From NCBI GenBank assembly GCA_030916895.1, contig JAUPVR010000001.1, positions 1,887 to 65,886 of the forward strand: 64,000 nucleotides of DNA, read 5' to 3'. Positions 15,724-61,351 of this stretch are shown piece by piece. The notes beneath the pieces were generated by a model, which saw nothing but the letters and a program-made list of their open reading frames with translations, searched no databases and had not been told where the DNA came from. The stretch comes from Patescibacteria group bacterium. Lineage in GTDB: Bacteria > Patescibacteriota > Minisyncoccia > Phycocordibacterales > UBA5272. Every line of letters begins with the position of its first letter. Within the stretch, counting starts at the first letter, position 1. The translations under genes and the position numbers were made by a program.

Positions 15724-15804
15724 GAAAAAATAAAAAACCGCGACCAACATAAGAAGCAATGCTTGAAAGATGTTCGCGGTTTTCAATATGTTCCGCAAAC
15801 GTTA

Positions 15805-16173
15805 TCACCAAACGATGCGTTGTTCACAGGGTGGTTGGTACCACCGTGTTTCGTAAGGTGTTTGCCATAGGATTTGCGGTGGCGGGCATACGACGATAAC
15901 CTGTGGTTGGGGTTGGAAGTTATATGCTCCGTAGTACGGAGGAACCAACCCGTAGCCGTAGTTACCATATATTCCGAACCCAACTGGTGGGCCAATGGTG
16001 ATTCCCCAAGAAAACGAAGGCGGGGCGTGGTGTTGTTGGGGGCGATATTCGTGGTGCCGTTGAGGGTTTTCAAAACGGTGGTGGCGGTTTCCTGAAATGA
16101 CGTTTTGTTGCCCAAAGGCAGATGGAACGAATATCCAGGATGCAACAAGGAGCAAAAGAGCAAGGCTTTTCAT
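15805..16173 (-). CDS. secreted Gly/Tyr/Pro/His-rich low-complexity protein (GC-rich island)
   Basis: Signal peptide MKSLALLLLVASWIFVPSAFG, strong SD aaggag, -35/-10-like promoter; coding sequence is visibly GC-rich. Confidence 0.6.
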   Translation of the reverse strand: MKSLALLLLVASWIFVPSAFGQQNVISGNRHHRFENPQRHHEYRPQQHHAPPSFSWGITIGPPVGFGIYGNYGYGLVPPYYGAYNFQPQPQVIVVCPPPQILWQTPYETRWYQPPCEQRIVW

Positions 16174-16257
16174 GAGGTTCTCCTTCAGTGAAAAGATATA
16201 TCTTCATACTATTCTTTTTTTGTGTTTATGCAAACAGCGTGCTAGATTTGAACTATT

Positions 16258-17310
16258 ATGAATAAAGGGAAGAAAGTGTTTGTCGGCATGTCAGGCGGGG
16301 TTGACTCGTCTCTTTCGGCCGCCCTTCTTAAAGAGCAGGGATACGATGTAACTGGGGTGTTTATCAAGGTCTGGCAACCTGATTTTATTGAATGTACTTG
16401 GAAAAATGACAGATTAGATGCGATGCGTGTTGCTTCCGAACTTGAAATTCCATTTGTAACCCTTGATTTAGAAAAAGAGTATAAACAGGGGGTCATCGAT
16501 TATATGCTTTCGGAATATAAGGAAGGGCGGACACCAAACCCTGATGTAATGTGCAACCGCGAAGTGAAGTTCGGTGCATTTTGGAAGTGGGCAAAAGAAC
16601 AGGGTGCAGATTTTATTGCGACGGGGCACTATGCAAAGACAGATCATGAGGAACTTTTGGTAAGTGACGATAAAAATAAGGATCAGACATATTTTCTTTG
16701 GATGCTCACCAAAAATGATTTAGAGCACATTCTTTTTCCAATTGGTCACTTAAAGAAAGATGATGTGCGCAATGAGGCAAAAAATCGTGGCCTCTACACA
16801 AGCGGAAAGAAAGACAGTCAAGGATTGTGCTTTGTTGGTACTATCGACATAAAAACACTCCTTAAGGAGTACATTGAAGAAAAGATTGGTGACGTAAAGA
16901 ATGAGGATGGTGAAGTTATTGGAGTACATGATGGAGTTACTTTCTACACCATTGGCGAACGCCACGGGTTTACGATACGCAAGAAGACCACCGATGATGC
17001 GCCCTACTATGTTATACGTAAAAATATCAAGAATAACGAGCTCATTGTGTCGCATCAGAAACCAGAGAAAAAACTTCACGAAGAAATTTTACTTGATAGG
17101 GTAAATTGGGTAAACGGCGGTCCGCGTGATGGTTTTACCTATGAGGCTCGTGCTCGTTACCGCGCGTTGCTTGCAAATGTAACGATTGCCAAAAAAAATG
17201 ACACATGGCACGCAAGTGTTATCTCCGGGGATCTTGTAGCTACTCCAGGACAGTCCCTCGTATTCTACGATAAGGAGAAGTGCTTGGGGGGCGGAATTAT
17301 TGTATACTAG
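16258..17310 (+). CDS. mnmA: tRNA 2-thiouridine(34) synthase
   Basis: VFVGMSGGVDSS PP-loop motif and MnmA architecture. Confidence 0.9.
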   Translation: MNKGKKVFVGMSGGVDSSLSAALLKEQGYDVTGVFIKVWQPDFIECTWKNDRLDAMRVASELEIPFVTLDLEKEYKQGVIDYMLSEYKEGRTPNPDVMCNREVKFGAFWKWAKEQGADFIATGHYAKTDHEELLVSDDKNKDQTYFLWMLTKNDLEHILFPIGHLKKDDVRNEAKNRGLYTSGKKDSQGLCFVGTIDIKTLLKEYIEEKIGDVKNEDGEVIGVHDGVTFYTIGERHGFTIRKKTTDDAPYYVIRKNIKNNELIVSHQKPEKKLHEEILLDRVNWVNGGPRDGFTYEARARYRALLANVTIAKKNDTWHASVISGDLVATPGQSLVFYDKEKCLGGGIIVY

Positions 17311-17330
17311 GAAAACTTTTTGATTTGCAT

Positions 17331-18227
17331 ATGGAAACAACAAACACCTTTGAAATACTTCTGTTTTATAAATATGTTGGTATACAAGACCCTCAAGTAC
17401 TTATGGAGCGTGAGCGTGCTGTGTGCTCTGTTTTAGGGCTTAAGGGGCGTATTATTATCGCCAAAGAGGGTATTAACGGTACCCTTGAAGGAACTCCAGA
17501 TATGACTGCAAAGTATAGAGAACACATTCTCTCTGATAAGCGTTTTAAGAATATGGATATAAAGACAAGTGAGGGTAATGGACAAGCATTCCCTCGTCTT
17601 TCGGTAAAAGTAAAACCAGAAATTGTTTCAACCAAACTTCCCGAACATATTGATCCAACTAAAGAAACAGCCGTACATTTGCCAGCTCACGAACTTAAGA
17701 AGTGGTATGACGAAGGGAAAGATTTCGTTGTGATTGACATGCGTAACGATTACGAAATAAAGAGTGGGTATTTTGATAAGACAGTAAATCCAGGGCTCTA
17801 CGCATCGCGTGATTTACCTAAGGCGCTCGATAAACTTCGTGTTCATAAAGACACAACAGTAGTTACTGTTTGTACGGGGGGTGTTAGATGTGAAAAAATG
17901 TCCGCATACTTACTTGACCAAGGATTTAAAGATGTGTACCAACTTCACAACGGTATGCACACGTTTATGGAAAAATATCCAGGACAGCATTTTAATGGCA
18001 CACTATTTACCTTCGATAACCGCATCACGATGCACTGGGGAGGGGACGAGAGAAAGATTGTTGGGAAATGTGCGGTGTGTGATGCAACAACCGAAAACTA
18101 CAGAAATTGTCAGAATCCAGTATGTAATGGAAAAATGCTCGTATGTGACAAATGTGCAGAGAGTCGTAAAGAAGAAATGTTTTGTAAAGACAAAACAACC
18201 TGCGGGAAATCGGTTCAGGTTGTGTAA
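17331..18227 (+). CDS. trhO: rhodanese-domain tRNA U34 hydroxylase-like (UPF0176)
   Basis: N-terminal UPF0176 motif IAKEGINGT, rhodanese core, Cys-rich C-terminus. Confidence 0.7.
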   Translation: METTNTFEILLFYKYVGIQDPQVLMERERAVCSVLGLKGRIIIAKEGINGTLEGTPDMTAKYREHILSDKRFKNMDIKTSEGNGQAFPRLSVKVKPEIVSTKLPEHIDPTKETAVHLPAHELKKWYDEGKDFVVIDMRNDYEIKSGYFDKTVNPGLYASRDLPKALDKLRVHKDTTVVTVCTGGVRCEKMSAYLLDQGFKDVYQLHNGMHTFMEKYPGQHFNGTLFTFDNRITMHWGGDERKIVGKCAVCDATTENYRNCQNPVCNGKMLVCDKCAESRKEEMFCKDKTTCGKSVQVV

Positions 18228-18240
18228 TTAGTGTGTCACG

Positions 18241-18909: not shown

Positions 18910-18940
18910 AATGGTATTGATTGTACATTATCTTATTTAA

Positions 18941-18961
18941 ATATGCAAATTATTTGCATAT
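18941..18961. promoter_or_regulatory. Fur-family (Zur-type) operator: perfect 10-1-10 palindrome
   Basis: atatgcaaat t atttgcatat in the divergent zupT/fur-family intergenic region. Confidence 0.65.
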
Positions 18962-18991
18962 ACGTTTGTAGGTGGTATACTCTACATTACT

Positions 18992-20523: not shown

Positions 20524-20542
20524 GTGATACACTGTTTGTACT

Positions 20543-20998
20543 ATGATTTCTGTTAAACAAAAAGCGCCAGCATTTTCACTTTTTGACCAAGATGGAAAGT
20601 TGCACAAGCTTTCAGATTATAAAGGTAAAAAAGTTTTACTATATTTTTATCCAAAAGATGACACCCCAGGATGCACTGAAGAGGCATGTAATTTTCGTGA
20701 TGGGTATAAAGAGTTTCAAAAACTCGGACTGGTTATTTTAGGAGTAAGTGCGGATTCTGTAAAGAGTCACAAAAAATTTGCTGAGAAATTTAAACTCCCA
20801 TTTCCAATTCTTTCCGATGAAAGTAAAGAAGTCTGTGAGGCCTACGGTGTGTGGGGAAAGAAAAAGTTTATGGGTCGTGAGTACATGGGGATTACGCGCT
20901 CAAGCTTTTTAATTGACGAACAAGGGAAGATCGCAAAAGTGTACGAACAAGTAAAAACAAAAGTGCACGCAGGGGAGGTGAGGTCAGATATGAAATAG
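20543..20998 (+). CDS. bcp: thioredoxin-dependent peroxiredoxin
   Basis: PGCT peroxidatic-Cys motif, 151 aa. Confidence 0.85.
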   Translation: MISVKQKAPAFSLFDQDGKLHKLSDYKGKKVLLYFYPKDDTPGCTEEACNFRDGYKEFQKLGLVILGVSADSVKSHKKFAEKFKLPFPILSDESKEVCEAYGVWGKKKFMGREYMGITRSSFLIDEQGKIAKVYEQVKTKVHAGEVRSDMK

Positions 20999-21000
20999 AG

Positions 21001-21030
21001 AAAGGGCGAACGCGGTTGCGTTCGCCCTTT
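21001..21030. terminator. bidirectional terminator hairpin
   Basis: aaagggcgaacgc ggtt gcgttcgcccttt. Confidence 0.7.
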
Positions 21031-21050
21031 GAAGCTTTGCGGTCCGCGCG

Positions 21051-21611
21051 TTACGCGGTCGCAGGCGGGGTGGTCTTTCGGCCGAAGTTCAGCCAGAGAC
21101 CGATCACACCTGTCGTCAGCCACTGCCAGACCATGATGGTCGCGAAGTTGTTGAAGGCAGACATCGTGGAGACCATGCCCTTCTTGACCTCCGTGCAGAG
21201 GTAGATCTCCGAGACGACACTGCACATCACGAGGATGAGGGACATCGTCCCGAAGAGCATCGCCATCTTGCCAAGCGTGATCGTCCGCTTGTTGGCCTCT
21301 TCGCCACCGGAGGTGAAGGCCGTGTGGGCCACGATGCCGATGAAGGCGGTGATCGAGAGCATGATGACGCCGAAGGTGTACACCATCATGACGATGGACC
21401 AGAAAATCCAGTTGCTTGCGTCAATGGGTGACGCGCTCTGGTTGAGGAACCAGAGGATGCACGTGGTCGTGATGACCATGAGTGCCAGGTTCTTCGCTAC
21501 CGAGCGCCCCTCGGCATGTGTCTTTTGGTCCTTGCGGAACGAGCGGACGATGTTGATGGAGAGGGCCACGAAAACGAGGCCTGCGAGAAGCATCAAGAGA
21601 CGGGTCAGCAC
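21051..21611 (-). CDS. hypothetical 4-5 TM membrane protein in a GC-rich island
   Basis: GTG start with SD aaaggaa; consensus sigma70 promoter (ttgaca-17-tataat) upstream on the minus strand near 21665-21695; the CDS is about 60% GC. Confidence 0.55.
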   Translation of the reverse strand: MLTRLLMLLAGLVFVALSINIVRSFRKDQKTHAEGRSVAKNLALMVITTTCILWFLNQSASPIDASNWIFWSIVMMVYTFGVIMLSITAFIGIVAHTAFTSGGEEANKRTITLGKMAMLFGTMSLILVMCSVVSEIYLCTEVKKGMVSTMSAFNNFATIMVWQWLTTGVIGLWLNFGRKTTPPATA

Positions 21612-21750
21612 GGGAGTTCCTTTCGTAAAGAAGTGAGAAATTTTGCAATGAGCGGTACAATGTCAATTATATCATATTTAAACACTTTTGTCAAGTTAAA
21701 AAGCCAATAAAAACAAGCCTTTTCAGGCCTATTTTTTGTTTTCTGGTGGG

Positions 21751-24456: not shown

Positions 24457-24549
24457 TTCAGTATTCTACCACGGCACACGCAAAACGTGTTGATATCTAT
24501 CCCTTTTTTAGAAAAAATAAAGAACTGCCATGATACACTTGATACACGT

Positions 24550-26837: not shown

Positions 26838-27056
26838 ATGGGAAAAGAATTCTCGCTCATTTCCGAGGAATCACTCGGTAAATGCCCGCGGTGCGATTCG
26901 GGCGAAGTGGTACTGAAAACATTTGCGCGAAAAACTCTCAAGAAAAATGGCCGGCCTCACCATAAGAGAGAGTGCAAGTGTACCCTTTGTTCTTGGAACT
27001 ACGACCCCAGATACTTTGGAAAAACCAAGTTCTATACATGGGGTTCGCGCGCTTAG
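26838..27056 (+). CDS. small zinc-ribbon protein (C-x2-C ... C-x-C-x2-C)
   Basis: 72 aa, SD agagagg, own terminator; convergent with the RT gene. Confidence 0.55.
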   Translation: MGKEFSLISEESLGKCPRCDSGEVVLKTFARKTLKKNGRPHHKRECKCTLCSWNYDPRYFGKTKFYTWGSRA

Positions 27057-27066
27057 GCGCGTTTTC
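27040..27066. terminator. shared bidirectional terminator between the Zn-ribbon gene and the RT
   Basis: gcgcgc tta ggcgcg followed by T-run on the plus strand; sits about 45 nt after the RT stop on the minus strand. Confidence 0.7.
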
Positions 27067-27111
27067 TTTTTATACAAAAACGGCGCCAAGATTTTTCCAA
27101 AAAGGATAGTC

Positions 27112-28242
27112 TTAGCGCCGAAGGGGCTTGTGCCGATTTTTGTAACGCTTCCTATATTCGTGCGAGGCGTGCTTGAATTCTTTGCAGAAATTGAGCGTCC
27201 TCTTATCGGTTTCGGTTGGCGTTACGAGCCGTAGGTAGTGAAGGAACTCTGCAATCATCCCGCGTATCACTTCTGGTGAATCGTTCCACGCAGGTGTTGC
27301 AAGGTAGCTTTTCATCACACCTTCGATACGGTCCCGCTTCCACCTAGGGAAACGAAGAACAGCTTTATCACCCGTATTTTCAATTCCCACCTTGGTGACA
27401 AATACCGTACCATGCTTCACATCAAGAACTCGTGACTTCCGGTGATTAACCGAGAAACCAGCGTCATTGATGAGGCTCCGTATTTCTCGCCGAAGATCGC
27501 TCCCGATAATGATGTCGCGGGAAAAAACCAAATCATCAACATAGCGAGTGTAGGTTATTGTTCGTTCGGTGTTTTCCTTAGACCCTTTTCTTTCACACAG
27601 AGCGCGAAGTTTGCTATCAAGAAAGACTTCGCAGTAAAGGTTAAGGAGACGTGGAGACATCGGTCCACCAATGGCGAGTCCGATGTTATTTGGTCCTGAA
27701 AAAGCAATTCGTACAAACTCTCGCAAGGGTAAGTACAGCTTGTCGGTTGTCATCATTTCCTGTGCAAGAGGATTTGAGGCGAACCAGCGAAGGGAATACC
27801 CAGAATCAAGCTGATACTTTCCGTAGTGAAAGATGAGGACGAGAAGCTTTGTCAGGCGGTCAAGGTCGACACTTGGATATGCGTGCACGAAGTCGGTGAT
27901 GTAGAAAAACCGATGACCTTTGTGCTTTTCAGCATTTACGAAGTGGTTAGATGATGGAACCGACCCCGTGGAAGACGGGAGTTTGCGCAGGGTGTAGGTT
28001 TCCCCGGTCCCATACACTTCACCGATTAGGTTGATTGCTTCATGTAGGTGTCGTTCGAAAACCGCATGAACTCTACGCATCGCCTTGTTCGGGGTGCTAA
28101 TGAGTCTTCGCTTGTCACCCACTTTTTTCCACTCTGTGTGGAATAGGGGCAATGTTTGCAAGTTGCTACCCATGAGTACATGCGGGTCGAAATGAAAAAG
28201 CTCCTCTTTTTGCGAAGGAGCCTTTTTTTGCTTTTTTGCCAT
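27112..28242 (-). CDS. reverse transcriptase, retron-type (stand-alone RT domain, about 376 aa)
   Basis: RT motifs read directly: KKVGDKRRLISTPNKAMRRV (motifs 1/2), ITDFVHAYPSVD (3), LAIGGPMSPRLLNLY (4, QG-x-P-x-SP type), YTRYVDDLVFS (5, compare retron YTRYADDLTFS), VFVTKVGI (VTG-like). SD aaggag sits 6 nt before the MAKKQ start; the 61-codon upstream extension in the ORF track is GC-rich leader, not coding. Confidence 0.85.
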   Translation of the reverse strand: MAKKQKKAPSQKEELFHFDPHVLMGSNLQTLPLFHTEWKKVGDKRRLISTPNKAMRRVHAVFERHLHEAINLIGEVYGTGETYTLRKLPSSTGSVPSSNHFVNAEKHKGHRFFYITDFVHAYPSVDLDRLTKLLVLIFHYGKYQLDSGYSLRWFASNPLAQEMMTTDKLYLPLREFVRIAFSGPNNIGLAIGGPMSPRLLNLYCEVFLDSKLRALCERKGSKENTERTITYTRYVDDLVFSRDIIIGSDLRREIRSLINDAGFSVNHRKSRVLDVKHGTVFVTKVGIENTGDKAVLRFPRWKRDRIEGVMKSYLATPAWNDSPEVIRGMIAEFLHYLRLVTPTETDKRTLNFCKEFKHASHEYRKRYKNRHKPLRR

Positions 28243-28306
28243 CGGAAGCTCCTTTGGTTTATGGGGTGATATTACAAATGAACATTTAAGTATTTCCACT
28301 GCTGGC

Positions 28307-28641
28307 GCTGGGGAGCCATGTAGATGCAGGGCAACACCCGAAGGTGCGTAACCAAAGCAGTGAACCGCGGGCCTGCGGCCGATCTCTCCTCCCGACCGAC
28401 TTCCGGCTGTTCGCGTGAATCGCACATGGCATGAACTTGCGATGACGCAGTCTGCTCGGACAGTGCCGAGGCTTCGCGGGCATAGCTTGCGCTATGAGGG
28501 AGGGCAACCCTCCCTTCCTGTCGCCAGACCTTACATCAAGAGAAAATTCCTCAAGAGAAGGCTTACTACGGCAGGATTTTGCTTAGGCACAACTACTTCT
28601 GTAATGCAGGATCTTGCACCCACAAGGTTTCGCTCCCCAGC
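28307..28641 (-). ncRNA. candidate structured ncRNA upstream of the RT (msr/msd-like or DRT-template-like)
   Basis: About 58-60% GC against a ~38% background; bracketed by 10-nt inverted repeats gctggggagc (28307-28316) and gctccccagc (28632-28641); internal hairpins include gggaggg-caa-ccctccc and a UUCG tetraloop stem; ends about 65 nt upstream of the RT start on the same strand. Confidence 0.45.
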
Positions 28642-28739
28642 TTACCCTTGATCCGAGTACCATCCTAGCACGCTTGTACGCAAAGTAAATACGAAGATTT
28701 ATCGAAAACTGTGTCATGTTTATGCTATAGTAGAGCGAT

Positions 28740-33132: not shown

Positions 33133-33207
33133 GCCAATGTAGCTCAGTTGGTAGAGCGCGTCCATGGTAAGGACGAGGTCATCGGTTCAATCCCGATCAT
33201 TGGCTCA
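33133..33207 (+). tRNA. tRNA-Thr (anticodon GGT)
   Basis: Acceptor gccaatg/cattggc, anticodon loop atGGTaa, T-loop ttcaatc. Confidence 0.85.
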
Positions 33208-33258
33208 GAAAAATAAAACAACCCGCCAAGCGGGGTTTTATTTTTCTGAGCCAATGAT
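33196..33258. repeat. about 23-bp inverted repeat including the tRNA-Thr 3' end, enclosing the terminator hairpin
   Basis: atcattggctcagaaaaataaaa ... ttttatttttctgagccaatgat around aacccgc-caa-gcggggtt. Confidence 0.7.
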
Positions 33259-33358
33259 TTCGAAGAGGGTCGGAGAAATGATAGTTTCTCCGCGGAGGAG
33301 AGCAGGGCTTTGCCCGTTGAGAACCGTGGGTTCTCAAAACCGGAGCGAAGCGGAGGTT

Positions 33359-33371
33359 ATCATTGGCTCAG
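33359..33371 (+). repeat. direct copy of the tRNA-Thr 3' end (atcattggctcag)
   Basis: Exact 13-nt repeat of 33196-33208; about 100 nt of hairpin-rich sequence lies between the copies. Confidence 0.65.
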
Positions 33372-33397
33372 TTGACATCCAAAGAAAAAAGTCCCCA

Positions 33398-34087
33398 CTA
33401 CGCAAGCGAGGACTGTTCATTTTTTTCTGATTCGTACAGGGGTCGTGTTTTGAAAATCGTTGAGTCCCAGAAAGAGATTAGATTCCTCAAGTACTCTGGA
33501 AGTTCTTCTTGGCGTACATCGTCGCCGTTGTAGAGACAAAAGTCCGAACGGGCACGTTTCTCATCTACCGACAATTGTGCATCTAGAAGGCCCTGGATTT
33601 CATATCGCGAAAGCGGGTCGTTTCCGTTACGGGAATTATTGAGGAGTCGTTCGACTGTTGTTTCCCGCTTGCACCAGATGCATACCACATGTTTAAACCT
33701 ACCATCGTTCCAACCTGCTTCGTGGAGGATGGCGCTCTCGACGTAAATAAAGCCGTCGTAGTTATTGGTACGCTTCATTATTTCCGACCAAACGATATCA
33801 GCCGTGAATTTCCAGAAGCGCTTCCTCACACTTTCGTCATGGATGATGATGTGGCGAATCATCTTGGTGTTATAGTTGACTTTTCCGCTTGCGGGGTCAT
33901 GTGTGAAGATGTCCGTACCAAGCAGTTCTGCTAGTTTATCGTCATATTTCCCACCGCTCTGATAGAGAAGTTCCTTGGCGATGTCGTCTGCGCGGAACAC
34001 TTTCCTGCCCCATGATTCGACGATTTGGATAAATGTGCTTTTACCGCAACCTAAGGGTCCAGTGAATCCGATAAAGGTTGTGCTCAT
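33398..34087 (-). CDS. coaE: dephospho-CoA kinase
   Basis: IGFTGPLGCGKST P-loop at the N-terminus. Confidence 0.8.
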   Translation of the reverse strand: MSTTFIGFTGPLGCGKSTFIQIVESWGRKVFRADDIAKELLYQSGGKYDDKLAELLGTDIFTHDPASGKVNYNTKMIRHIIIHDESVRKRFWKFTADIVWSEIMKRTNNYDGFIYVESAILHEAGWNDGRFKHVVCIWCKRETTVERLLNNSRNGNDPLSRYEIQGLLDAQLSVDEKRARSDFCLYNGDDVRQEELPEYLRNLISFWDSTIFKTRPLYESEKNEQSSLA

Positions 34088-34189
34088 TGCCGTGACCTTT
34101 CTGTAGTTAAATGTTCAATTAATCCCATACTATAGAAAAATAAATCATTGTCAAACAAGCATTTTTTTTGTAAAATAAGGCTTCAATAA

Positions 34190-34265
34190 GCCACCTTAGC
34201 TCAGTTGGTAGAGCATTTCACTCGTAACGAAAAGGTCTGCAGTTCGATTCTGCAAGGTGGCTCCA
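34190..34265 (+). tRNA. tRNA-Thr (anticodon CGT), CCA encoded
   Basis: Acceptor gccacct/aggtggc, anticodon loop ctCGTaa, T-loop ttcgatt, 3' tcca. Confidence 0.8.
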
Positions 34266-35821: not shown

Positions 35822-35921
35822 AGTTGCCAATTTTCTTTTCTAGGAGTAGGATTGGAATTGGATATAGGTGAATTGTCCTCCCCCCTTTACGAAGTAGCCA
35901 TGCTATATAGAAAGAAGCCAG

Positions 35922-36338
35922 ATGACAAAGACCGTAATAGAAATGCTGGAAGGAAGACGCCTCGTCCCAGTTGGAAGCATTAACTTTGACTGTGCGGACA
36001 GTGCCTTCAGCAGGTTCTTTGCACGACGGGTGGATGCGGATTTCGGGGGTGATATCGACCTCCGCGTGGGTCGCATCATCAAGCACGTCGATTACCCGCT
36101 CGGGCTCTCTTATCGGAATGCCGTCTACGAGGTGCGCGCGGATCGTATTAAGGACGGTGTTCCGACGGTAGCGCTCGTGATCATCCACAAGTGCCCGCAG
36201 TACTGCTACGAAGGATGGAAGGTTTGTCGCTATACCGGATTTAAGCCGTACAAGCTGTCAGACGTTGAATCCGGCCTCGCGCCAACGCACATCTTTGCCG
36301 ACAACGAATACGAAATCGAGTGCGTGTGTAAGAGATAG
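35922..36338 (+). CDS. hypothetical Cys-rich protein in a GC-rich island
   Basis: 138 aa, GC3-biased codons, followed by terminator gccccg...cggggc + T6. Confidence 0.5.
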   Translation: MTKTVIEMLEGRRLVPVGSINFDCADSAFSRFFARRVDADFGGDIDLRVGRIIKHVDYPLGLSYRNAVYEVRADRIKDGVPTVALVIIHKCPQYCYEGWKVCRYTGFKPYKLSDVESGLAPTHIFADNEYEIECVCKR

Positions 36339-36365
36339 CCACTTCGATTTCCAGGAACAATTGAG

Positions 36366-36400
36366 CCCCGTACGCTACAAGCGCGCGGGGCGAGTTTTTT
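36366..36400 (+). terminator. intrinsic terminator
   Basis: gccccg tacgctacaagcgcg cggggc gagtttttt. Confidence 0.7.
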
Positions 36401-36439
36401 ATTCACAAATTCATTTTTATGCTGTGCTATACTACTTTT

Positions 36440-39753: not shown

Positions 39754-39925
39754 CAAGTTTTCTAACTCTTGACATTTTTCATATTTTCAGTTATTATAAT
39801 GACAGGAGCTCTTGGGAGCGTGTTATTAGTTACATTTTTTGGTAACATGACTCGGCCTCACTTCTATAAGTTTTTAAGATCCACTTTCCCACAAACCGCA
39901 ATGTCTTCATAGGAGATTTGCAGGT

Positions 39926-40111
39926 ATGCCAACCACCAACACCCCCTCCCTGTGGCACGACCGCGTCGCGGACGATCACAACGGTCACCAGGGCTGTGGC
40001 ATTACGCCCGAACACACGCAGGAGGCGCTCGAGCAGACACGGCACGGCGATGTGTCGTCCGCCGAATGCGAGTTCGTGACCTGCATCATCAACAACAACG
40101 GCCCGATCTAG
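39926..40111 (+). CDS. small (61 aa) hypothetical protein in a GC-rich island
   Basis: SD aggaga 9 nt upstream, terminator downstream; I counted about 63% GC across the ORF; strongly GC3-biased codons. Confidence 0.45.
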   Translation: MPTTNTPSLWHDRVADDHNGHQGCGITPEHTQEALEQTRHGDVSSAECEFVTCIINNNGPI

Positions 40112-40136
40112 GTGTCGTTCGACCACCAGGTCTCAA

Positions 40137-40170
40137 AAAAACCGCCCGTCCTAGGATTGGCGGTTTTCTA
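40137..40170 (+). terminator. intrinsic terminator
   Basis: aaaaccgcc cgtcctaggatt ggcggtttt. Confidence 0.7.
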
Positions 40171-41414: not shown

Positions 41415-41566
41415 ATAAAGTCCATTTTATCATGGTATTTTACCAGAGTCTGTTTTTTTGTGACACACATTATCAAATCCTGCTTTATATTGACTTTATG
41501 CTTAATTTATGGTATAATAGAGGATGCATTAGTACCCCAAAAAGGTACAGTTTGTGCAACAAACGT

Positions 41567-53208: not shown

Positions 53209-53230
53209 AATCCCCGCGTTGGCGGGGATT
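53209..53230. terminator. bidirectional terminator hairpin
   Basis: aatccccgc gttg gcggggatt. Confidence 0.65.
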
Positions 53231-53249
53231 GGGGAGGGGGGCATGTTTC

Positions 53250-53591
53250 TTACGGCTTTTGCTGTCGCTCCTGGAGGAGTTCGATGTTTTCAAGTGTAAA
53301 GGACATGGTCTCCACAAAGAGCATCTTGTTGAAAGTACCGGTCGTTCTTAGGATGATGGTACGGTTCTTGAGATGGCTCCAGTCCTTGCGGACGCGCACA
53401 TCTTCAAGCGACGCAATCGTATCCAAATCCATCACGACCTGGCCGTTGTACTCCATGGAAAGCAGTTGACGGATACTCTCCCTGGTTTCTTCACTGGGGA
53501 TATCCGTACCATTTTCCTTGAACATCAAGCGGAGGATAGACGAACCCTTCTCGGCCATGCTTTGCAGAACGGCCACAATGTAGTCTTTCAT
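53250..53591 (-). CDS. hypothetical 113-aa protein in a GC-rich island
   Basis: SD gggag 9 nt upstream, GC3-biased codons, terminator downstream. Confidence 0.5.
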   Translation of the reverse strand: MKDYIVAVLQSMAEKGSSILRLMFKENGTDIPSEETRESIRQLLSMEYNGQVVMDLDTIASLEDVRVRKDWSHLKNRTIILRTTGTFNKMLFVETMSFTLENIELLQERQQKP

Positions 53592-53682
53592 GTGTAATCT
53601 CCCGATTTAGGCACTTGAGCCGTTCTGTTTATTATAAAGTATTTTTTGTATTTTGTCAAGTAAACGGTATACTCTGTACATA

Positions 53683-53850
53683 ATGAAAACATTTAGTAAA
53701 AGAGTAATTGCTTGTGCACTTTCTATTCCGCGCGGATGTGTGAGTACGTACGGCCGGATTGCTCATGCTTCAGGTGGTAGTGATCCAGTAGTATTATTTT
53801 TTTGTTTTGAGATCTTTCACTTTCTCATGAAAGACGGTCGCCATTTTTAG
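53683..53850 (+). pseudogene. truncated ATL/MGMT-like gene fragment
   Basis: MKTFSKRVIACALSIPRGCVSTYGRIAHASGG matches the N-terminus of 59139..59477 (about 80% nt identity over ~100 nt), then diverges and overlaps the marR 3' end. Confidence 0.55.
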
Positions 53851-54249
53851 ATTCCAGTCTGTAATCAATAGTAATTCTGCCACAGTGTATCCAGAGAGGA
53901 TGTCGGGAATTTTTTTTGAAAACATTTCACGTATTGATGTTAGGTTCTTCGGGATTCCCAGAAGTTTTATGATTGTTTTTCTTCGATCATTTTTATCTGC
54001 TTCACGCTTTATGAAACCCCCATTCTCAAGTCTGTCGATCATCGCAGTAACGGCTCCGGTCGTAAGTCCGGTTGCCTTTCCAAGTTCGCCGGCTGTTGCG
54101 GAATGTACCTCACTTAAAAATTCCAGACAGCGGATGTCGGTAGGGTGTATTCCTGTGATTTCGGATACGGCATGCACAAAAAGTGCCCCAGCTCGAGTTT
54201 CTCTGTGTATTGATGATATTAGTTTTTCTGTTGCTCCTTTGCGTTTCAT
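53794..54249 (-). CDS. MarR-family transcriptional regulator
   Basis: Winged-helix core ELGKATGLTTGAVTAMIDRLE. Confidence 0.8.
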   Translation of the reverse strand: MKRKGATEKLISSIHRETRAGALFVHAVSEITGIHPTDIRCLEFLSEVHSATAGELGKATGLTTGAVTAMIDRLENGGFIKREADKNDRRKTIIKLLGIPKNLTSIREMFSKKIPDILSGYTVAELLLITDWNLKMATVFHEKVKDLKTKK

Positions 54250-54365
54250 TTAAGTTACTTTATACTAAAGTAACTTGTTTGTAAAGATATTTTATATTAT
54301 TATGAATAATAGCGGAATTGGGTGTATTGTGTTTTGAATTCTTTTACTCTATTAATTTTTTACAT

Positions 54366-55922
54366 ATGGCAATGAACAAGAAAATTTTATTTATAGTATC
54401 GGGGCTTATCGTTGTTTTTGCCGTTGGTGGTATATTTTTTATGCAACGTTTTAGTGCTACACCATACACACTTGCGGTCACGAAGAGAGGGAAGATTGTC
54501 CAGGAAGTTTCCGCAAGCGGGAAAGTTGAGTCACCCACACAAATCGATTTGCGCTTTAAAGGGAGCGGTAAACTTATTTCTCTAAATGCACGTGTTGGTG
54601 AGAAGGTGTCAGTAGGTAAACTCCTTGCCAAACAAGATACCACTCAACTTGATGCTCAGGTGAAAGAAATGCAGTCAGGAATAGATCTTCAGAGAGCAAA
54701 GTTAAATCAGCTTTTAAGTGGAGCTTCATCTGAGGATGTGACTATTTCAGAAACGGCATTGCTTAATGCTGAACAAGCACTCTTTGGTGCAAAGAAAAAC
54801 ATGATTGATAGGTTGCAAGGAGTATATACAAAATCTGATGATGCAATTCGAGCAAGGGCCGACCAACTATTTGATAACCCAAAAACATCTAACCCACAAC
54901 TAGTGTCTAGTTTTGCATATGATATGCGACTTGAGAACGAAATGGAAGCAGAGAGATTTCGTATTGAGGCTATGCTTAATGAATGGTTTGAAAATGTCGA
55001 TACCATTTTAGTGGAAAGTGATTTTATTCTTGCAACAACGCTCGCAAAAAAGAACGCCGCACAAGTAAAGGCATTTCTTACAAGTGCGGCGTTTGTGGTA
55101 AACACTCTTACACCAAATTCCAATATAAACCAAACAACAATCGACAAGTGGAAGGCTGATATTTCTACAGCACGAACTAATGTTGACACGGCTGTCTCTA
55201 ATCTCCTTGTTGCAGAGGAAAATTTACAAACAAAAGAATCAGCTTTTACGACAGCAAAGAATCAACTTGCTCTCAAGACTGCCCCAGTGCGCTCATCAGA
55301 TGTTGCTGTGTACCAGGCACAAATTGCACAAGCAGAATCCTCTCTTGCAAGAATAGAGGCCCAGAGAAGGGATTTGATAATTTACGCACCGATATCTTCT
55401 TTGGTGACAAGAGTCAGTGGTGAGGTCGGTGAGATGGTCGGAGCAGATATGGTTGTGGTATCACTTGCTACTGGGGGTGCATTACAAATACGACTGAATG
55501 TTGTTGAAGATAAAATTGTTAATGTTCGTATCGGCCAGAAGGCAAGGATTACCTTTGATGCGATTGGAGATGAGGAATTTAGTGGAAAAGTCGTTGCCAT
55601 TGACCCTGTGGAGACCATCATTGGTGGTGCGGTGTATTACCAGACAACGATATTATTTGATACGGTAGACGAACGAATTCGATCAGGAATGACGGCCAAT
55701 GTTTGGATTAATACAGCCGTTTCAGAGGAGGTCCTTTTTGTTCCAGCAAGCGCCGTGCAAAGCAATGACGGAAAAAAAATGGTGCAAACATTTTCTGATG
55801 GACGAGTGGTTAAAAAAGAAGTACACACTGGTATTGAAAATGATGCTGGAATGATTGAAATTATTTCAGGTCTTTCCGAAGGAGAACAAGTTATTCTCGG
55901 TGCTAATAAAAAGCAAAAGTAG
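54366..55922 (+). CDS. efflux membrane-fusion (HlyD/MacA-like) protein
   Basis: N-terminal TM, long coiled-coil hairpin, beta-barrel C-terminus. Confidence 0.7.
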   Translation: MAMNKKILFIVSGLIVVFAVGGIFFMQRFSATPYTLAVTKRGKIVQEVSASGKVESPTQIDLRFKGSGKLISLNARVGEKVSVGKLLAKQDTTQLDAQVKEMQSGIDLQRAKLNQLLSGASSEDVTISETALLNAEQALFGAKKNMIDRLQGVYTKSDDAIRARADQLFDNPKTSNPQLVSSFAYDMRLENEMEAERFRIEAMLNEWFENVDTILVESDFILATTLAKKNAAQVKAFLTSAAFVVNTLTPNSNINQTTIDKWKADISTARTNVDTAVSNLLVAEENLQTKESAFTTAKNQLALKTAPVRSSDVAVYQAQIAQAESSLARIEAQRRDLIIYAPISSLVTRVSGEVGEMVGADMVVVSLATGGALQIRLNVVEDKIVNVRIGQKARITFDAIGDEEFSGKVVAIDPVETIIGGAVYYQTTILFDTVDERIRSGMTANVWINTAVSEEVLFVPASAVQSNDGKKMVQTFSDGRVVKKEVHTGIENDAGMIEIISGLSEGEQVILGANKKQK

Positions 55923-55925
55923 GTC

Positions 55926-57158
55926 ATGAACGGAATTGATTTTAAAACGGCCATCTTTGTTGCTTATAAAACTATCACAAGAGGCAATAAATCTACAGCG
56001 GTTTTCACGGTCTTTATCTTGTCTCTTTCATTTTTTAATTTGATGTTTGTTTCTGGGTTTTTGAATGGGTTTTCTGATGGAATTATGCGATCAATGATAG
56101 ATAATTCAACTGCGCATATTATTGTCATGCCACAAGAGAAGCCGACCGTTAAAGAATTTATCTTGAACCAGGAGAAGGTTCGTGCCCAAATCGAAACAAT
56201 TCCAGGGGTTGTTGGAACAGCTCGGCATTATCAATTGGGGGGTTCATTCGCATATGATAAGGAAAAGATGGGTGAATTTAAGAGAGTTTCTGCGCCAGTG
56301 ATAGGTGTGACCCAGTCAGAAGAAAAGAAGATTCTCACCGTATATCAAAATATTGTTTCTGGTGAGTTTCCTGACGATCTGAAGAATGATGAAATTATAC
56401 TTGGAGCAAATCTTGCTGGCGGATTTGGGACAAAACAAACATCAGATCTCGGCGGTGCGGTTGTGGGAGATGAAGTGCAGGTGACATACTCCAACGGCAT
56501 CATTCGAACATATACGATAAAAGGAATTTTTAAGATTAGTATGGGTGGGTCGGTTGGGGGTACTGCGTTCATTTCGGCGCAGGAGGCGGAATCTGTATTG
56601 TCTGTGTATGATAACGCTTCAGAGATTATGGTACGTGTCGATCTTATTCATGGAACATTGGATGAGTATGTTGAGCAAATTGAGACAATAGTCCCAAACC
56701 TAAAAATTGAAAAATACACGAACCGTCTCAGTACTGTTGGTATCCTTGTTGATGCTTTCAATATCATTGCTGTCATTGTAACTGTTATTAGTATTATTGT
56801 TGCTGCGATAACAATCTTTGTGATGATATATGTGAACGCAGTGAATAAGCGCAGACAAATTGGCATTCTAAAAGCCATAGGTATCAAGGAAAGTATTATT
56901 GAGTTATCATATGTTTTTCAATCTCTTTTCTATGTAATTCTTGGAACCGCACTCGGGCTTGTGATTGTTTTTTCCCTTGTGGTTCCTCTGTTGCAAATAC
57001 GACCAATTCTGATGCCATTTGGAAACGCAAGTTTGGTGTATACCTTTGTCGAGATTTTTATAAACATTATTAGTCTTACCATCTCGGGAATCTTCGCAGG
57101 GTTTATTCCTGCAAAGATGGTAGCAAGACAGAATATTTTAAGATCAATCTGGGGTTAA
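55926..57158 (+). CDS. ABC transporter permease, FtsX/MacB-like
   Basis: TM1, large periplasmic loop and 3 C-terminal TMs. Confidence 0.75.
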   Translation: MNGIDFKTAIFVAYKTITRGNKSTAVFTVFILSLSFFNLMFVSGFLNGFSDGIMRSMIDNSTAHIIVMPQEKPTVKEFILNQEKVRAQIETIPGVVGTARHYQLGGSFAYDKEKMGEFKRVSAPVIGVTQSEEKKILTVYQNIVSGEFPDDLKNDEIILGANLAGGFGTKQTSDLGGAVVGDEVQVTYSNGIIRTYTIKGIFKISMGGSVGGTAFISAQEAESVLSVYDNASEIMVRVDLIHGTLDEYVEQIETIVPNLKIEKYTNRLSTVGILVDAFNIIAVIVTVISIIVAAITIFVMIYVNAVNKRRQIGILKAIGIKESIIELSYVFQSLFYVILGTALGLVIVFSLVVPLLQIRPILMPFGNASLVYTFVEIFINIISLTISGIFAGFIPAKMVARQNILRSIWG

Positions 57159-57170
57159 TAAATTAAAATT

Positions 57171-57833
57171 ATGATCAAAGTAGATAATCTTACAAAAACA
57201 TACCCTGGAGAAGTTCCCACTCAAGCGTTAAAAGGTGTTTCGTTTGAGATAAAGAAAGGTGAATTTGTTGCACTCATGGGTAGAAGTGGATCTGGTAAAT
57301 CAACACTCTTACATCAACTAGGACTTCTTGATATTCCAACATCGGGAACCGTCCTTATTGATGGTGTCGATATTCTTGCTCTTTCTGATGCTGAAAGAAC
57401 TTCATTTCGTCTCAATCACCTGGGGTATGTATTTCAAGAGTATGCACTTATTGCTGAATTTACTGCGCTTGAAAATGTTTATTTTCCAGCGATGGTTCTT
57501 GGTGGAGAGCGCAACAAAGAGCGTGCGTCAGAACTTCTGAAACTTGTTGGATTAGAAGAAAGGTTGCATCATTACCCCGGAGAAATGTCGGGGGGGGAAC
57601 AACAACGCGTCGCGATTGCTCGAGCGCTTATTAATAATCCTAAAATACTCTTTGCAGACGAAGCAACAGCAAACCTCGATACTGTTTCGTCAGAGGTGGT
57701 ATATCGACTTTTTCAGAAATTGAATAAAGAACTTAATCAGACCATTATCATGATTACCCATGAGCCAGAAGATAGAAAGTATATGGATCGAGTGATTTGG
57801 TTGAAAGACGGTTTGATAGAAAAAGAAGACTAA
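57171..57833 (+). CDS. ABC transporter ATP-binding protein (MacB/LolD-like)
   Basis: Walker A GRSGSGKST, signature MSGGEQQR, Walker B ILFADE. Confidence 0.9.
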   Translation: MIKVDNLTKTYPGEVPTQALKGVSFEIKKGEFVALMGRSGSGKSTLLHQLGLLDIPTSGTVLIDGVDILALSDAERTSFRLNHLGYVFQEYALIAEFTALENVYFPAMVLGGERNKERASELLKLVGLEERLHHYPGEMSGGEQQRVAIARALINNPKILFADEATANLDTVSSEVVYRLFQKLNKELNQTIIMITHEPEDRKYMDRVIWLKDGLIEKED

Positions 57834-57872
57834 TCGATTATTGTTTATAACTGTCAGTTTTTTAAATCGTGC

Positions 57873-59477: not shown

Positions 59478-59509
59478 AACAACATATTTGTATATATACT
59501 AAGACTCAT

Positions 59510-59788: not shown

Positions 59789-59798
59789 CACCATCATT

Positions 59799-60383
59799 AT
59801 GCTTCTTACCAATACTTACTGGGTTTTGCGTCATGCGGAAAGTGATAATAATGTTCTCGGTGTTTCAAATACACACGACTACAACATGTACCGTTTAACA
59901 AAGAAAGGGGTTGAGCAAACAAAATCAGCATACGAATTTTTGAAAGACAAAAAAATTGAACTCATTTTTGTATCACCGTTCTTGCGAACGATTGAAACCG
60001 CATACATTTTGTCTACCCTTGTGGGTGATGGCAAGGTGTATGTAGATGAACGCTTGATTGAACTTAAGGAAAGTCATGATGACGGAACTCCAATTACAGG
60101 CATGACATCACGAAGTGAAAGCATTTTGACAGACGCATGGTGGACAACACGAACAGGCGAGGAAACATTTCGCGACCTATATGCACGCATACGAGCCTTT
60201 CTCATGTATGTAGAAACTACGTATTCGGGGAAAACGGTTCTCGTTGTTACCCACGGTTCTCCGCAGAATATGCTTGAAGCAATCGCACACACGGAAACCG
60301 AAGAAGAGGTGCGACAATTTCTCTACAAACGCTACACAAGCGATAGACCGTTTCGTGGGAATGCTGAACCAATACGAGTTTAG
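59799..60383 (+). CDS. histidine phosphatase (PGM-like) family protein
   Basis: YWVLRHAES catalytic RH motif. Confidence 0.6.
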   Translation: MLLTNTYWVLRHAESDNNVLGVSNTHDYNMYRLTKKGVEQTKSAYEFLKDKKIELIFVSPFLRTIETAYILSTLVGDGKVYVDERLIELKESHDDGTPITGMTSRSESILTDAWWTTRTGEETFRDLYARIRAFLMYVETTYSGKTVLVVTHGSPQNMLEAIAHTETEEEVRQFLYKRYTSDRPFRGNAEPIRV

Positions 60384-60395
60384 TTTGGAAATGAA

Positions 60396-60430
60396 AAAAC
60401 CGCCGTGCCGAAGCATGGGCGGTTTTTAAC
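60396..60430. terminator. bidirectional terminator
   Basis: aaaaccgcc gtgccgaagcatg ggcggtttt. Confidence 0.7.
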
Positions 60431-60449
60431 CTCGCGCGGGCGAGGGTGG

Positions 60450-60878
60450 TTATGCGGTGATTACCCGCATGTGTTTGCGGGCTTCGGCTTTCGCGAGGAC
60501 CGCGCACGCATGTGGGTCGTTCTCGGCGTTCTCGAACGTGTGAAGTGACCACATGTGCACGCCGGGCCCTTCGTGTCTTGCGCGGTAGCACCGGCCAGAT
60601 ATGGTTCGCACAATGAAGTGCTTACCATCCGGGTGCTTGGGGTCGCTTGGGGTCACGAAGCGCACATGGGCAGTCGGAAGATCTCCTTCGCGAAAGTCCT
60701 CGATGGGACGCATCAGGTGGACCCGGAACGCGTCCGCACCGCTTTCGAAGAGGTGCTTTATCATGAGCACATCAACGACAGGCGGAGTGACTGGGTCGAC
60801 TTTGACCTGGTCTTCGATTTTTTCTCCGAACAATTCCATTTTGGTTTTTCTCCCGGGGTTGTTTATGGTTATGGCCAA
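60450..60878 (-). CDS. hypothetical 142-aa protein, GC-rich island, distal gene of a 2-gene operon
   Basis: Overlaps the upstream gene by 10 nt; GC3-biased codons. Confidence 0.5.
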   Translation of the reverse strand: MAITINNPGRKTKMELFGEKIEDQVKVDPVTPPVVDVLMIKHLFESGADAFRVHLMRPIEDFREGDLPTAHVRFVTPSDPKHPDGKHFIVRTISGRCYRARHEGPGVHMWSLHTFENAENDPHACAVLAKAEARKHMRVITA

Positions 60879-61240
60879 GAGGGGATGTCATCCCCGCCAA
60901 GCTCAAGTGTCTTTTTCAGAGCTTCTCGTAGTTCTGGCGATAGTGCTTGTGCCTCTTTCGGTTCTTGCATGAGGGCACAAACCGTCATCTTGCATCGATG
61001 AAAATCTTGATGTATCGATGGCAGATTAAAGTTTTTAGCACTTAGCGCAAGAAATGGAGATGCTTCCAGTGTCTTTTCGGGCAAGGAGGATAAAGCAATC
61101 ATGACAAAAAGTGCAGGATCGCCAAACTCTCTTTCCCGTAAAAACCGAAAACCTTGTTCTTTCGAAACGAAGTGATATCCCCGAGGAGATGCGTGCACGT
61201 ATCCGTGCTTTCCGCAGGGACAAATGTACGAGTCCGACAT
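60869..61240 (-). CDS. hypothetical 123-aa protein with N-terminal C-x-C...H motif, GC-rich island
   Basis: SD gaggt 9 nt upstream; host-like -10 tataat upstream. Confidence 0.5.
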   Translation of the reverse strand: MSDSYICPCGKHGYVHASPRGYHFVSKEQGFRFLREREFGDPALFVMIALSSLPEKTLEASPFLALSAKNFNLPSIHQDFHRCKMTVCALMQEPKEAQALSPELREALKKTLELGGDDIPSWP

Positions 61241-61351
61241 GGTTTAGTACCTCAAGGGGTGGGTGGTACAGCTCTTGTTATTATAACATATTTTTAAAAT
61301 ATTGTCTAGTTTCGCATTGATTTTTTAGGTGGTCGTAGTACACTTTGTATT

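Follow-up and report, generated by a model that had tools for sequence, protein, structure and literature searches.

Small GC-rich units between core genes of a Patescibacteria chromosome: independent accessory genes whose third-position GC may be old and maintained

A 64,000-nucleotide stretch of the genome of a Patescibacteria group bacterium (GenBank assembly GCA_030916895.1, contig JAUPVR010000001.1, positions 1,887 to 65,886), referred to here as the window, carries seven short GC-rich islands scattered among housekeeping genes. The reading put forward here, with a probability of roughly 55%, is that the islands are independent accessory units lodged in the spacers between core genes, and that the elevated GC content at third codon positions (GC3) of islands 1 to 3 is old and actively maintained rather than the relic of a donor genome. 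GC outliers are routinely read as recent transfer, and the clearest outlier here, the gene of island 2, appears to be vertically inherited at a fixed locus. The initial annotation of the window had proposed repeated recent acquisition from high-GC donors into terminator-proximal spots, or a dispersed set of cargo genes of one mobile or defence system.

Composition of the islands

The GC content of the window is 41.2%, or 40.3% outside the islands, rather than the ~38% first estimated. A blind sliding GC scan recovered all seven islands of the initial annotation. In the list below, GC1, GC2 and GC3 denote the GC content at the three codon positions of an open reading frame (ORF), and z refers to 52 native genes with GC1/GC2/GC3 of 0.518/0.352/0.341 (standard deviation 0.041/0.033/0.040).

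Island 1, 15805-16173: interval GC 51.2%; ORF with moderate GC3 of 0.49 (z within 3.8-4.7), GC1/GC2 0.60/0.44
Island 2, 21051-21611: interval GC 58.5%; ORF with GC3 0.88 (z 13.5), GC1/GC2 0.46/0.43
Island 3, 26838-28700, the reverse transcriptase (RT) locus: interval GC 48.8%; Zn-ribbon ORF (3a) with GC3 0.53 and RT with GC3 0.51, both moderate (z within 3.8-4.7)
Island 4, 35922-36338: interval GC 54.0%; ORF with GC3 0.65 (z 7.8), GC1/GC2 0.57/0.40
Island 5, 39926-40111: interval GC 62.9%; ORF with GC3 0.85 (z 12.9), GC1/GC2 0.59/0.46
Island 6, 53250-53591: interval GC 49.4%; ORF with GC3 0.67 (z 8.4), GC1/GC2 0.50/0.32
Island 7, 60450-61240: interval GC 52.1%; ORF 7a with GC3 0.68 (z 8.6), ORF 7b with GC3 0.41 (z 1.9, no excess)

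Interval values thus range from 48.8 to 62.9%, and the figure of about 60% given for the islands at first is reached by island 5 only, for which the 63% counted earlier agrees with the measurement. Peaks in 150-nucleotide windows lie at 53-66% GC. The GC3 bias that had been ascribed to every island is strong in islands 2, 4, 5, 6 and 7a, moderate in the Zn-ribbon ORF, the RT and island 1, and absent in 7b. In island 3, the GC-richest stretch (~28.3-28.64 kb) is non-coding.

These values bear on the proposal that each island is a recent, unameliorated horizontal acquisition from a high-GC donor that landed near a terminator, which is regarded here as unlikely. Recently transferred genes have atypical base composition and codon usage, as the islands do, but they also have all codon positions and the amino acids shifted, with a signal that decays. 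In the islands, GC1, GC2 and the amino-acid make-up are near native and GC3 is undecayed. The share of FYMINK residues is 0.30 in native genes, 0.31 in island 2 and 0.29 in island 6, and that of GARP residues is 0.21, 0.20 and 0.15, respectively. Cross-genome regressions of the Muto and Osawa type predict a GC1 excess of about +0.13 at such GC3, while pooling the five GC3-rich ORFs gives +0.04. GC1 and GC2 are mildly raised in islands 1 and 3 and at or near the resident background in island 2; in island 1 the rise reflects a protein with much Pro, Gly, Gln and His. Furthermore, the rise in GC starts at the start codon, the 120 nucleotides upstream, with promoter and untranslated region (UTR), being AT-rich at 31-41% GC (islands 1, 2, 4, 5, 6 and 7b). 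On the other side, the GC1, GC2 and GC3 of islands 4 and 7a are compatible with donors of ~57% GC.

GC skew is positive along the entire window, and 44 of the 52 long native genes lie on the plus strand. The excess of minus-strand islands in the initial annotation is borne out (five of seven, versus 8 of 52 native genes; Fisher p = 0.004). A replication-strand (lagging-strand) effect on GC3 was considered and rejected, as native minus-strand genes have GC3 of 0.21-0.41.

Two other explanations, GC-rich genes for structured RNAs within an AT-rich genome and assembly chimeras, are very improbable. The segment of island 3 with the highest GC is indeed predicted to be a structured RNA. However, the strong three-nucleotide periodicity of islands 2, 4, 5, 6 and 7a (GC3 z = 8-13.5) is explained only by coding sequence, no island has an Rfam match, and the orthologues of islands 1 and 2 described below keep frame, length, signal peptide or transmembrane pattern, and motifs. 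The check for chimerism that had been recommended showed six separate Logan assemblies from different sequencing runs to be 100% identical to the window over the junctions of islands 2 and 3, and other contigs span islands 4, 5 and 7 with 0-3 mismatches. Assembly chimerism is excluded for the tested junctions, and the RNA-gene and chimera explanations are refuted for all but the 28.3-28.64 kb segment.

Islands 1 to 3 in related genomes

The window represents a chromosome of Paceibacteria type. The nearest species-level genomes have RNase R proteins 64-78% identical to that of the window and are labelled as Paceibacterota, Nomurabacteria or "Saccharibacteria" metagenome-assembled genomes. Two comparators proved informative for islands 1 to 3, namely Logan contigs of a congener (L087/L103, ~49% GC) and GCA_964517625.1 (L095/L096, 42% GC). 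The first two islands have the following layout, with island 3 described further below.

Island 1 unit, 15732..16234, minus strand: weak promoter TTTGCA-17-TAGTAT at 16234-16206; coding sequence (CDS) 16173-15805 for a predicted secreted, low-complexity protein of 122 aa rich in Pro, Gln, His, Gly and Tyr; bidirectional terminator at ~15784-15732, common to the convergent RNase T gene
Island 2 unit, 21001..21694, minus strand: perfect promoter TTGACA-17-TATAAT at 21694-21666; CDS 21611-21051 for a predicted multi-pass membrane protein of 186 aa with a C-terminal WLNxGRK motif; terminator at 21030-21001 with a 13-bp stem, common to the convergent PrxQ gene

A search of 1.84 billion representatives with the island 2 protein returned the protein itself, two weak full-length matches (E = 1e-4 and 3e-4) and one partial match to a protein of 3126 aa. 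Both weak matches are positional orthologues, P0013 in L103 and P0014 in L096, located between the same DsbA-like and YibE_F genes as island 2. At this locus, the neighbour's terminator and a perfect TTGACA-17-TATAAT promoter can be aligned in the three genomes; the terminator is near-identical between L103 and L096, and the window has a hairpin in the same place with a different stem sequence. The three proteins are 186, 187 and 194 aa in length, keep their hydrophobic segments and share an invariant WLNxGRK motif. Their amino-acid identity is 26-32% in each pair (26% between the window and L103), a star-like pattern, compared with 70-94% for nine neighbouring core proteins. Island 1 likewise has an orthologue in L103, in the same slot and orientation, with 43% amino-acid identity and an alignable promoter. 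In L096, island 2 is present and islands 1 and 3 are absent.

The divergence between the window and L103 is deep. Core proteins are 60-93% identical, and those of islands 1 to 3 are 26-69% identical. At the 4-fold sites of core genes only 18-38% of positions match, where 22-26% would match by chance, and the GC content at these sites is ~0.3 in the window and ~0.6 in L103. Synonymous sites have therefore been ~90% randomised since the split of the two lineages. Against this background, the coding sequences of islands 1 to 3 evolve much faster than their neighbours, with conserved promoter regions in islands 1 and 2 and a retained terminator in island 2.

Despite this divergence, the GC3 of island 2 is 0.88 in the window, 0.87 in L103 and 0.62 in L096, over backgrounds of 0.34, 0.54 and 0.38. 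The third-position profile is alike in the window and L103 (A 0.05, C ~0.5, G 0.35-0.39, T 0.07), and GC1 (0.46, 0.54 and 0.49 in the window, L103 and L096) does not exceed the background. In both lineages, the GC3 of island 1 and of the RT is still +0.10 to +0.17 over background.

A passive donor signature would by now be ~90% decayed, with third positions fading first, and the reverse is observed. Recent import of islands 1 to 3 is thus refuted: they occupy the same slots in L103 despite near-saturated 4-fold sites, with conserved promoters in islands 1 and 2 and GC3 that is still high. The initial annotation had itself named homologues in relatives with the same GC pattern as the observation that would speak against it, and islands 1 to 3 come close to that case. 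Their GC3 excess therefore appears to be maintained. In combination, these comparisons suggest that islands 1 to 3 predate the split from the congener. Nor are they absent from close relatives in the manner of recently transferred genes, islands 1 to 3 being found in L103 and island 2 in L096 as well.

Slots between core genes and their occupants

The comparison with related genomes that had been called for shows that, at several slots, the flanking core genes are adjacent where the island is absent. The island 1 slot between RNase T and MnmA is empty in L096 (40 bp), the island 3 slot between SMC and RNase R is empty in L009 and L095 (22-31 bp), and the island 4 slot between RF2 and FtsE is empty in L009, L014 and L101 (63-135 bp). 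The last of these holds an unrelated ORFan (a gene without recognised homologues) of 159 aa with GC3 0.69 in L102 and a 173-aa ORF in one JGI contig; an orthologue of island 4 was found in none of the relatives' slots examined. The position of island 5 is taken by a tRNA-Gln gene in L009 and elsewhere by other ORFs or nothing. FtsE proved too conserved to single out the closest relatives, although its look-ups still provided slot comparisons, and a metagenome scan anchored on YibE_F returned only five distant loci, none of which spans the slots. These comparisons support the view that the islands are lineage-restricted additions in spacers rather than parts of the core genome.

In a survey of 76 related loci, GC3 exceeds the background by more than 0.2 in none of 642 conserved genes and in 31 of 335 orphans (9%), with no shift of the median orphan GC3. 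GC3-rich genes are thus a recurrent minority class among slot occupants in the clade. Recent import gains some ground here, as the islands are lineage-restricted and lie between genes that are adjacent in relatives, GC3 outliers of the clade occur only among non-conserved genes, and slots in relatives hold GC3-rich genes with known domains (a phosphoribosyltransferase in L007 and a TSCPD protein in L031), which fits foreign entry. In addition, no orthologues of islands 4 to 7 were found, and these islands could still be of recent origin.

Many relatives have GC3-rich (0.69-0.89) minus-strand genes of their own immediately upstream of RNase R, for example L007 9169-9996, L031 7927-8583, L035 9298-9789, L054 9411-9818 and L074 3539-4432, a group to which many of the 31 outlying orphans belong. 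Most encode secreted proteins, lipoproteins or ORFans, the L007 and L031 genes being the phosphoribosyltransferase and the TSCPD-domain protein. A conserved, tmRNA-like RNA was considered for the GC-rich DNA upstream of RNase R and rejected, as the segments in relatives are unrelated GC3-rich ORFs.

Between island 2 and YibE_F, the window carries a PrxQ-type peroxiredoxin gene (20543-20998) of native GC3 (0.33) that is missing from that slot in both L103 and L096. The turnover of slots therefore includes genes of ordinary composition.

Promoters and terminators

Judging from the sequence, every island is a self-contained unit with a predicted sigma-70-type promoter, a Shine-Dalgarno sequence, one or two small predicted ORFs and a terminator of its own. 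The AT-rich, host-like promoter and Shine-Dalgarno elements described at first are thus present. Exact matches to TTGACA-N16-18-TATAAT occur at two sites in the 64 kb, where 0.07 would be expected by chance, and these lie directly upstream of islands 2 and 6; four of the units have a near-consensus promoter. In three promoter consensus scans covering 49 kb, the top sites of the respective regions are those of islands 2, 6 and 7, while the island 5 site ranks second in its region and that of a coaE-like gene, described below, second in its own. Four of the five best matches in these 49 kb belong to islands 2, 6, 5 and 7.

At its 3' end, each unit has a GC-rich hairpin with a T-run. In the minus-strand units, an A-tract accompanies the T-tract, and the hairpin doubles as the terminator of the convergent gene on the plus strand. 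The initial annotation had placed each island beside a bidirectional terminator of the host. Hairpins are found there, several of them bidirectional, but they are part of the islands; relatives without the islands have only 22-135 bp between the flanking genes. The terminators arrived with the islands and are not pre-existing landing sites, contrary to the idea of insertion into terminator-proximal spots and to the recent-import explanation built on it.

Searches for a donor, for mobility and for a common system

The predicted products of islands 1, 2, 4, 5, 6, 7a and 7b have no matches in Pfam, NCBIfam, PHROGs or PADLOC. A donor should have left homologues in its own lineage, but none were found for island 4 among 5.8 billion clusters, and island 2 recovered only its positional orthologues among 1.84 billion representatives. 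The high-GC donor lineage expected from homologue searches was therefore not found for the two islands searched in the largest sets, a further point against recent import. In IMG/VR, scans found no relatives either for islands 6, 7a and 7b or for the alignment of the island 2 family.

The idea of one mobile or defence system, for instance one linked to the RT, whose cargo or components lie dispersed as islands is largely refuted and very unlikely. An RT locus does lie among the islands, and island 2 has GC3 of 0.87-0.88 in the two RT-bearing genomes and 0.62 in the RT-less one, a comparison of three genomes only. However, in sensitive blastn and tblastx searches the islands resembled neither one another nor any of 80 related loci, so that no sequence, motif or repeat is common to them beyond generic promoter hexamers, and nothing convincing was seen in the way of flanking direct or inverted repeats. 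The islands likewise lack the traits of integrons, miniature inverted-repeat transposable elements and insertion sequences (shared recombination sites, terminal inverted repeats, target-site duplications). PADLOC and PHROG matches are limited to the RT, L096 has island 2 without the RT or island 1, and the islands lie scattered between housekeeping genes along 45 kb. They do not form one system.

Cause of the third-position GC

The islands may have arisen by gene gain into spacers similar to that of phage morons, at differing ages, and horizontal transfer is a reasonable origin, especially for islands 4 to 7. What would then be actively maintained is a GC excess residing mainly at third codon positions. 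Its most likely cause would be synonymous codon selection in a few fast-evolving genes with very strong predicted promoters, and GC-biased repair at a recombination-prone locus would be a less likely one. A high-GC donor whose signature is fading does not account for it. The comparisons leave the cause between codon-level selection, which is favoured, recombination-linked bias and allele import.

Selection on codon choice is favoured because proteins that tolerate 70% replacement would be expected to show higher GC1 and GC2 as well if a force acting on all sites (mutation bias or gene conversion) were at work. Additionally, the C-ending share in NNY boxes is 0.74 in island 1 and 0.80 in island 7a, while the G-ending share in Lys, Glu and Gln codons is 0.06 and 0.39. 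This pattern, with C in NNY boxes and no preference for G, is the classical look of translational selection. In islands 2 and 5, both codon classes are shifted. Adenine-specific mutagenesis of the kind seen with diversity-generating retroelements was rejected, as A and T are both depleted at third positions.

Several observations weigh against maintained GC3 as set out above. GC3 is not high in the gene for ribosomal protein S16 or in other native genes that are presumably well expressed, and a promoter site matching 11 of 12 positions lies inside the 5' end of ORF 41432-42406, which has a GC3 of only 0.32. ORFs 7b and 7a are under one promoter and have GC3 of 0.41 and 0.68, so that the level of transcription alone cannot set GC3. 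Maintenance is seen for islands 1 to 3 only, and strongly for island 2 only, from two comparator genomes, and homologues of islands 5, 6, 7a and 7b were sought in profile libraries, exact-cluster look-ups and viral scans. It is also possible that alleles were repeatedly replaced from a GC-rich pool, with promoter and terminator as homology arms.

This last idea is part of a broader explanation in which the slots are recombination hot spots, where divergent alleles are swapped through promoter and terminator arms after DNA uptake and where GC-biased conversion or GC-rich alleles sustain GC3. The conserved flanks, the hyper-divergent coding sequences and the star-like three-way identities are as it would predict, and slots have unrelated occupants, as at RF2|FtsE in L102 and, in many loci, upstream of RNase R. 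Lassalle et al. in 2015 reportedly found a recombination-associated increase of GC3 in bacteria, which counts in its favour. However, gene conversion should lift GC1 and GC2 too, and the GC1 of island 2 is at or below background in three genomes; moreover, an AT-rich promoter and UTR lie immediately beside the GC-rich CDS. GC3 of ~0.87 in a donor pool would imply genomes of ~65% GC, and the 80 related loci reach 55% at most. Same-sample strain variants differ from the window by 0-3 single-nucleotide polymorphisms (SNPs), none inside an island, and give no signal of polymorphism; islands 4 and 5 lack within-population variation, and the three SNPs in one 6.4-kb variant all lie in a native gene. 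Recombination hot spots are accordingly judged a rather improbable source of the GC3 excess.

If synonymous selection is indeed the cause, a wider and more speculative generalisation may be considered. A class of strongly promoted, fast-evolving Paceibacteria genes might keep G- and C-ending codons by synonymous selection acting on moron-like cassettes that turn over in fixed slots and probably encode surface or host-interaction proteins of an episymbiont, an idea that is tentative and on balance doubtful. If it held, one gene class would have a codon dialect of its own while genome GC3 drifts between 34% and 54%, and this dialect might give privileged or conditional translation, or protection of mRNA, in an AT-rich cell.

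Island 3: a retron-like locus

Island 3 consists of three predicted elements.

Zn-ribbon ORF (3a), 26838..27062 (ORF 26838-27056), plus strand: 72 aa, CPRC...CKCTLC, with its own terminator at 27046-27062
RT, 27112..28245, minus strand: 377 aa counted from the ATG at 28245
Candidate retron msr-msd, 28307..28641, minus strand: GC-rich, structured non-coding RNA (ncRNA) of ~335 nucleotides upstream of the RT

The RT matches Pfam RVT_1 (3e-10), PADLOC RT_outgroup (retron; 1.4e-16) and NCBIfam retron_St85_RT (9e-19), and its best matches in the PDB are the RTs of retrons Ec78 and St85. It is 69% identical to the RT of L103 and absent from L009 and L095. The Zn-ribbon ORF is convergent with the RT and has a 68-aa orthologue of 38% identity in the same place in L103; it has no family match in the profile libraries searched. 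The ncRNA is closed by a 10-bp helix (GCUGGGGAGC / GCUCCCCAGC) that is invariant in the window and L103. It can be aligned with L103 and has a fold z of -2.3, and in the consensus fold 16 of 77 pairs are kept through double changes, though from two sequences only. In the window, tRNAs were the only Rfam matches; seven related loci gave none, and neither did the RT region at a relaxed threshold. L102 has a more distant RT locus that also adjoins RNase R.

Taken together, the predicted features make island 3 a retron-like element of an untyped kind. As might be expected of a retron, the RT finds its best matches among retron RTs only, a predicted structured ncRNA bounded by a putative long-range inverted repeat like a1/a2 lies immediately upstream on the RT strand, and a small accessory ORF adjoins the RT. 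Unlike retrons, its RT scores far below the family cut-offs (67.8 versus 235 bits for retron_St85_RT) and fits no typed class, its ncRNA is longer than a classical msr-msd, and the adjoining Zn-ribbon ORF lies on the opposite strand and is not a known effector. No demonstrable link between island 3 and the other islands was found.

Islands 4 to 7 and two additional units

The predicted layout of the remaining islands is as follows.

Island 4 unit, 35824..36401, plus strand: promoter-like TTGCCA-17-TAGGAT at 35824-35852; CDS 35922-36338 for a Cys-rich ORFan of 138 aa; terminator at ~36364-36401
Island 5 unit, 39769..40170, plus strand: promoter TTGACA-17-TATTAT at 39769-39797; 5' UTR of ~120 nucleotides; CDS 39926-40111 for 61 aa; bidirectional terminator at ~40134-40170, common to the convergent gene 40168-40722
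Island 6 unit, 53209..53659, minus strand: perfect promoter TTGACA-17-TATAAT at 53659-53631; CDS 53591-53250 for an ORFan of 113 aa; terminator at 53230-53209
Island 7 unit, 60395..61308, minus strand: promoter TAGACA-17-TATAAT with extended TG at 61308-61280; bidirectional terminator at 60427-60395
ORF 7b, 61240-60869, minus strand: 123 aa
ORF 7a, 60839-60450, minus strand: 129 aa

The ORFs of islands 4, 5, 6, 7a and 7b are predicted small soluble ORFans. The island 4 protein matched only itself in the 5.8 billion clusters, that of island 6 forms a singleton cluster, and 7a and 7b have no family, viral or cluster relatives in the profile libraries, cluster look-ups and IMG/VR. AlphaFold2 models made without alignment are unusable for island 6 (pLDDT 53) and 7a (pLDDT 39). 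In island 7, which has a single promoter, the GC excess is confined to 7a. For islands 4 to 7, maintenance of GC3 and more recent import are both possible.

Two further units of this kind were missed by the initial annotation and bring the total to nine.

coaE-like unit, 33390..34154, minus strand: CDS 34087-33398 with GC3 0.54; promoter TTGACA-16-TAGTAT; 10-bp terminator
ORFan unit, 62698..63409, minus strand: gene 62738-63409 for ~194-223 aa with GC3 0.52; terminator at 62724-62698 with 11 pairs, nine of them G-C

The dephospho-CoA-kinase-like gene sits between tRNA-Thr(GGU) and tRNA-Thr(CGU) in the region 33133-34265. As the same two tRNA genes are 2 nucleotides apart in L009, it is an insertion between them. 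The ORFan at 62738-63409 has no family matches in profile libraries.

Other features of the window

Housekeeping ORFs of the window include those for LeuRS, a short SMC, RNase R, RF2, FtsEX and CopA, and further large ORFs encode a MacAB-type exporter and a copper nitrite reductase. The SMC homologue (24487-26775) has 762 aa, and 742-763 aa in all relatives, compared with ~1180 aa in the SMC model of NCBIfam; it matches that model in the head parts at the N and C termini and lacks much of the coiled coil.

Island 6 adjoins a module of MarR, MacA, MacB and ABC ATPase genes (window 53794-57832; L104 7878-11906) with 79% DNA identity to Candidatus Lloydbacteria contigs. Protein identity is 92-95% for the MacB permease and the ABC ATPase and ~77% for MarR and MacA. 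The similarity ends exactly at the outer gene ends (at 53794 beside island 6) and the flanks are unrelated, suggesting that the module may move between Paceibacteria.

Next to island 5, the 6.4-kb strain variant L098 differs from the window by three clustered substitutions at 40554-40558, inside the native NTP_transf_6 gene (40168-40722).

Comparison with known systems

Small compositional islands of ORFan genes are a known kind. Like compositional genomic islands and ORFan accessory genes, the units described here are atypical in composition, lineage-restricted and devoid of homologues, and they are found in variable slots between syntenic core genes. Unlike genomic islands, they contain one or two genes only, with no integrase, no direct repeats and, except for the coaE-like gene between two tRNA-Thr genes, no tRNA target, and their GC excess is confined to synonymous positions and persists through saturated divergence. 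ORFans were reportedly found by Daubin and Ochman in 2004 to be usually AT-richer than the genome, while the islands here are GC-richer.

As in synonymous-GC selection or biased gene conversion, the GC3 of particular genes lies above the mutational equilibrium of the genome. The effects on GC3 described by Lassalle et al. in 2015 and by Raghavan, Kelkar and Ochman in 2012 are said to be of a few percent over many genes. Single genes here are 0.3-0.54 above background with GC1 and GC2 unchanged. The unusual part appears to be that, in hyper-divergent genes with strong predicted promoters at fixed loci, a GC3 excess has outlasted saturated divergence, as seen mainly in one family in three genomes. 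If this is general, codon composition in reduced genomes would be set gene by gene through selection, and composition-based transfer calls in the Candidate Phyla Radiation would be misleading. As small, predicted secreted or membrane proteins that evolve fastest and have the strongest predicted promoters, the products of such units are natural candidates for host-interaction factors of an uncultured episymbiont.

Phage morons carry a promoter and a terminator of their own, differ in GC content from the surrounding genes and are extra DNA in comparison to related genomes (Cumby et al., 2012; PMC3594210). Like morons, the islands are single small genes or sets of a few genes with their own predicted promoter and terminator, inserted between genes that are adjacent in relatives (islands 1, 3, 4 and the coaE-like gene). 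Unlike morons, they lie among the housekeeping genes of a bacterial chromosome, where no prophage, PHROG structural or viral relatives were found, and at least three of them appear to be old residents with maintained GC3. This moron-like layout on a chromosome suggests a way in which tiny genomes may gain genes without mobile-element machinery.

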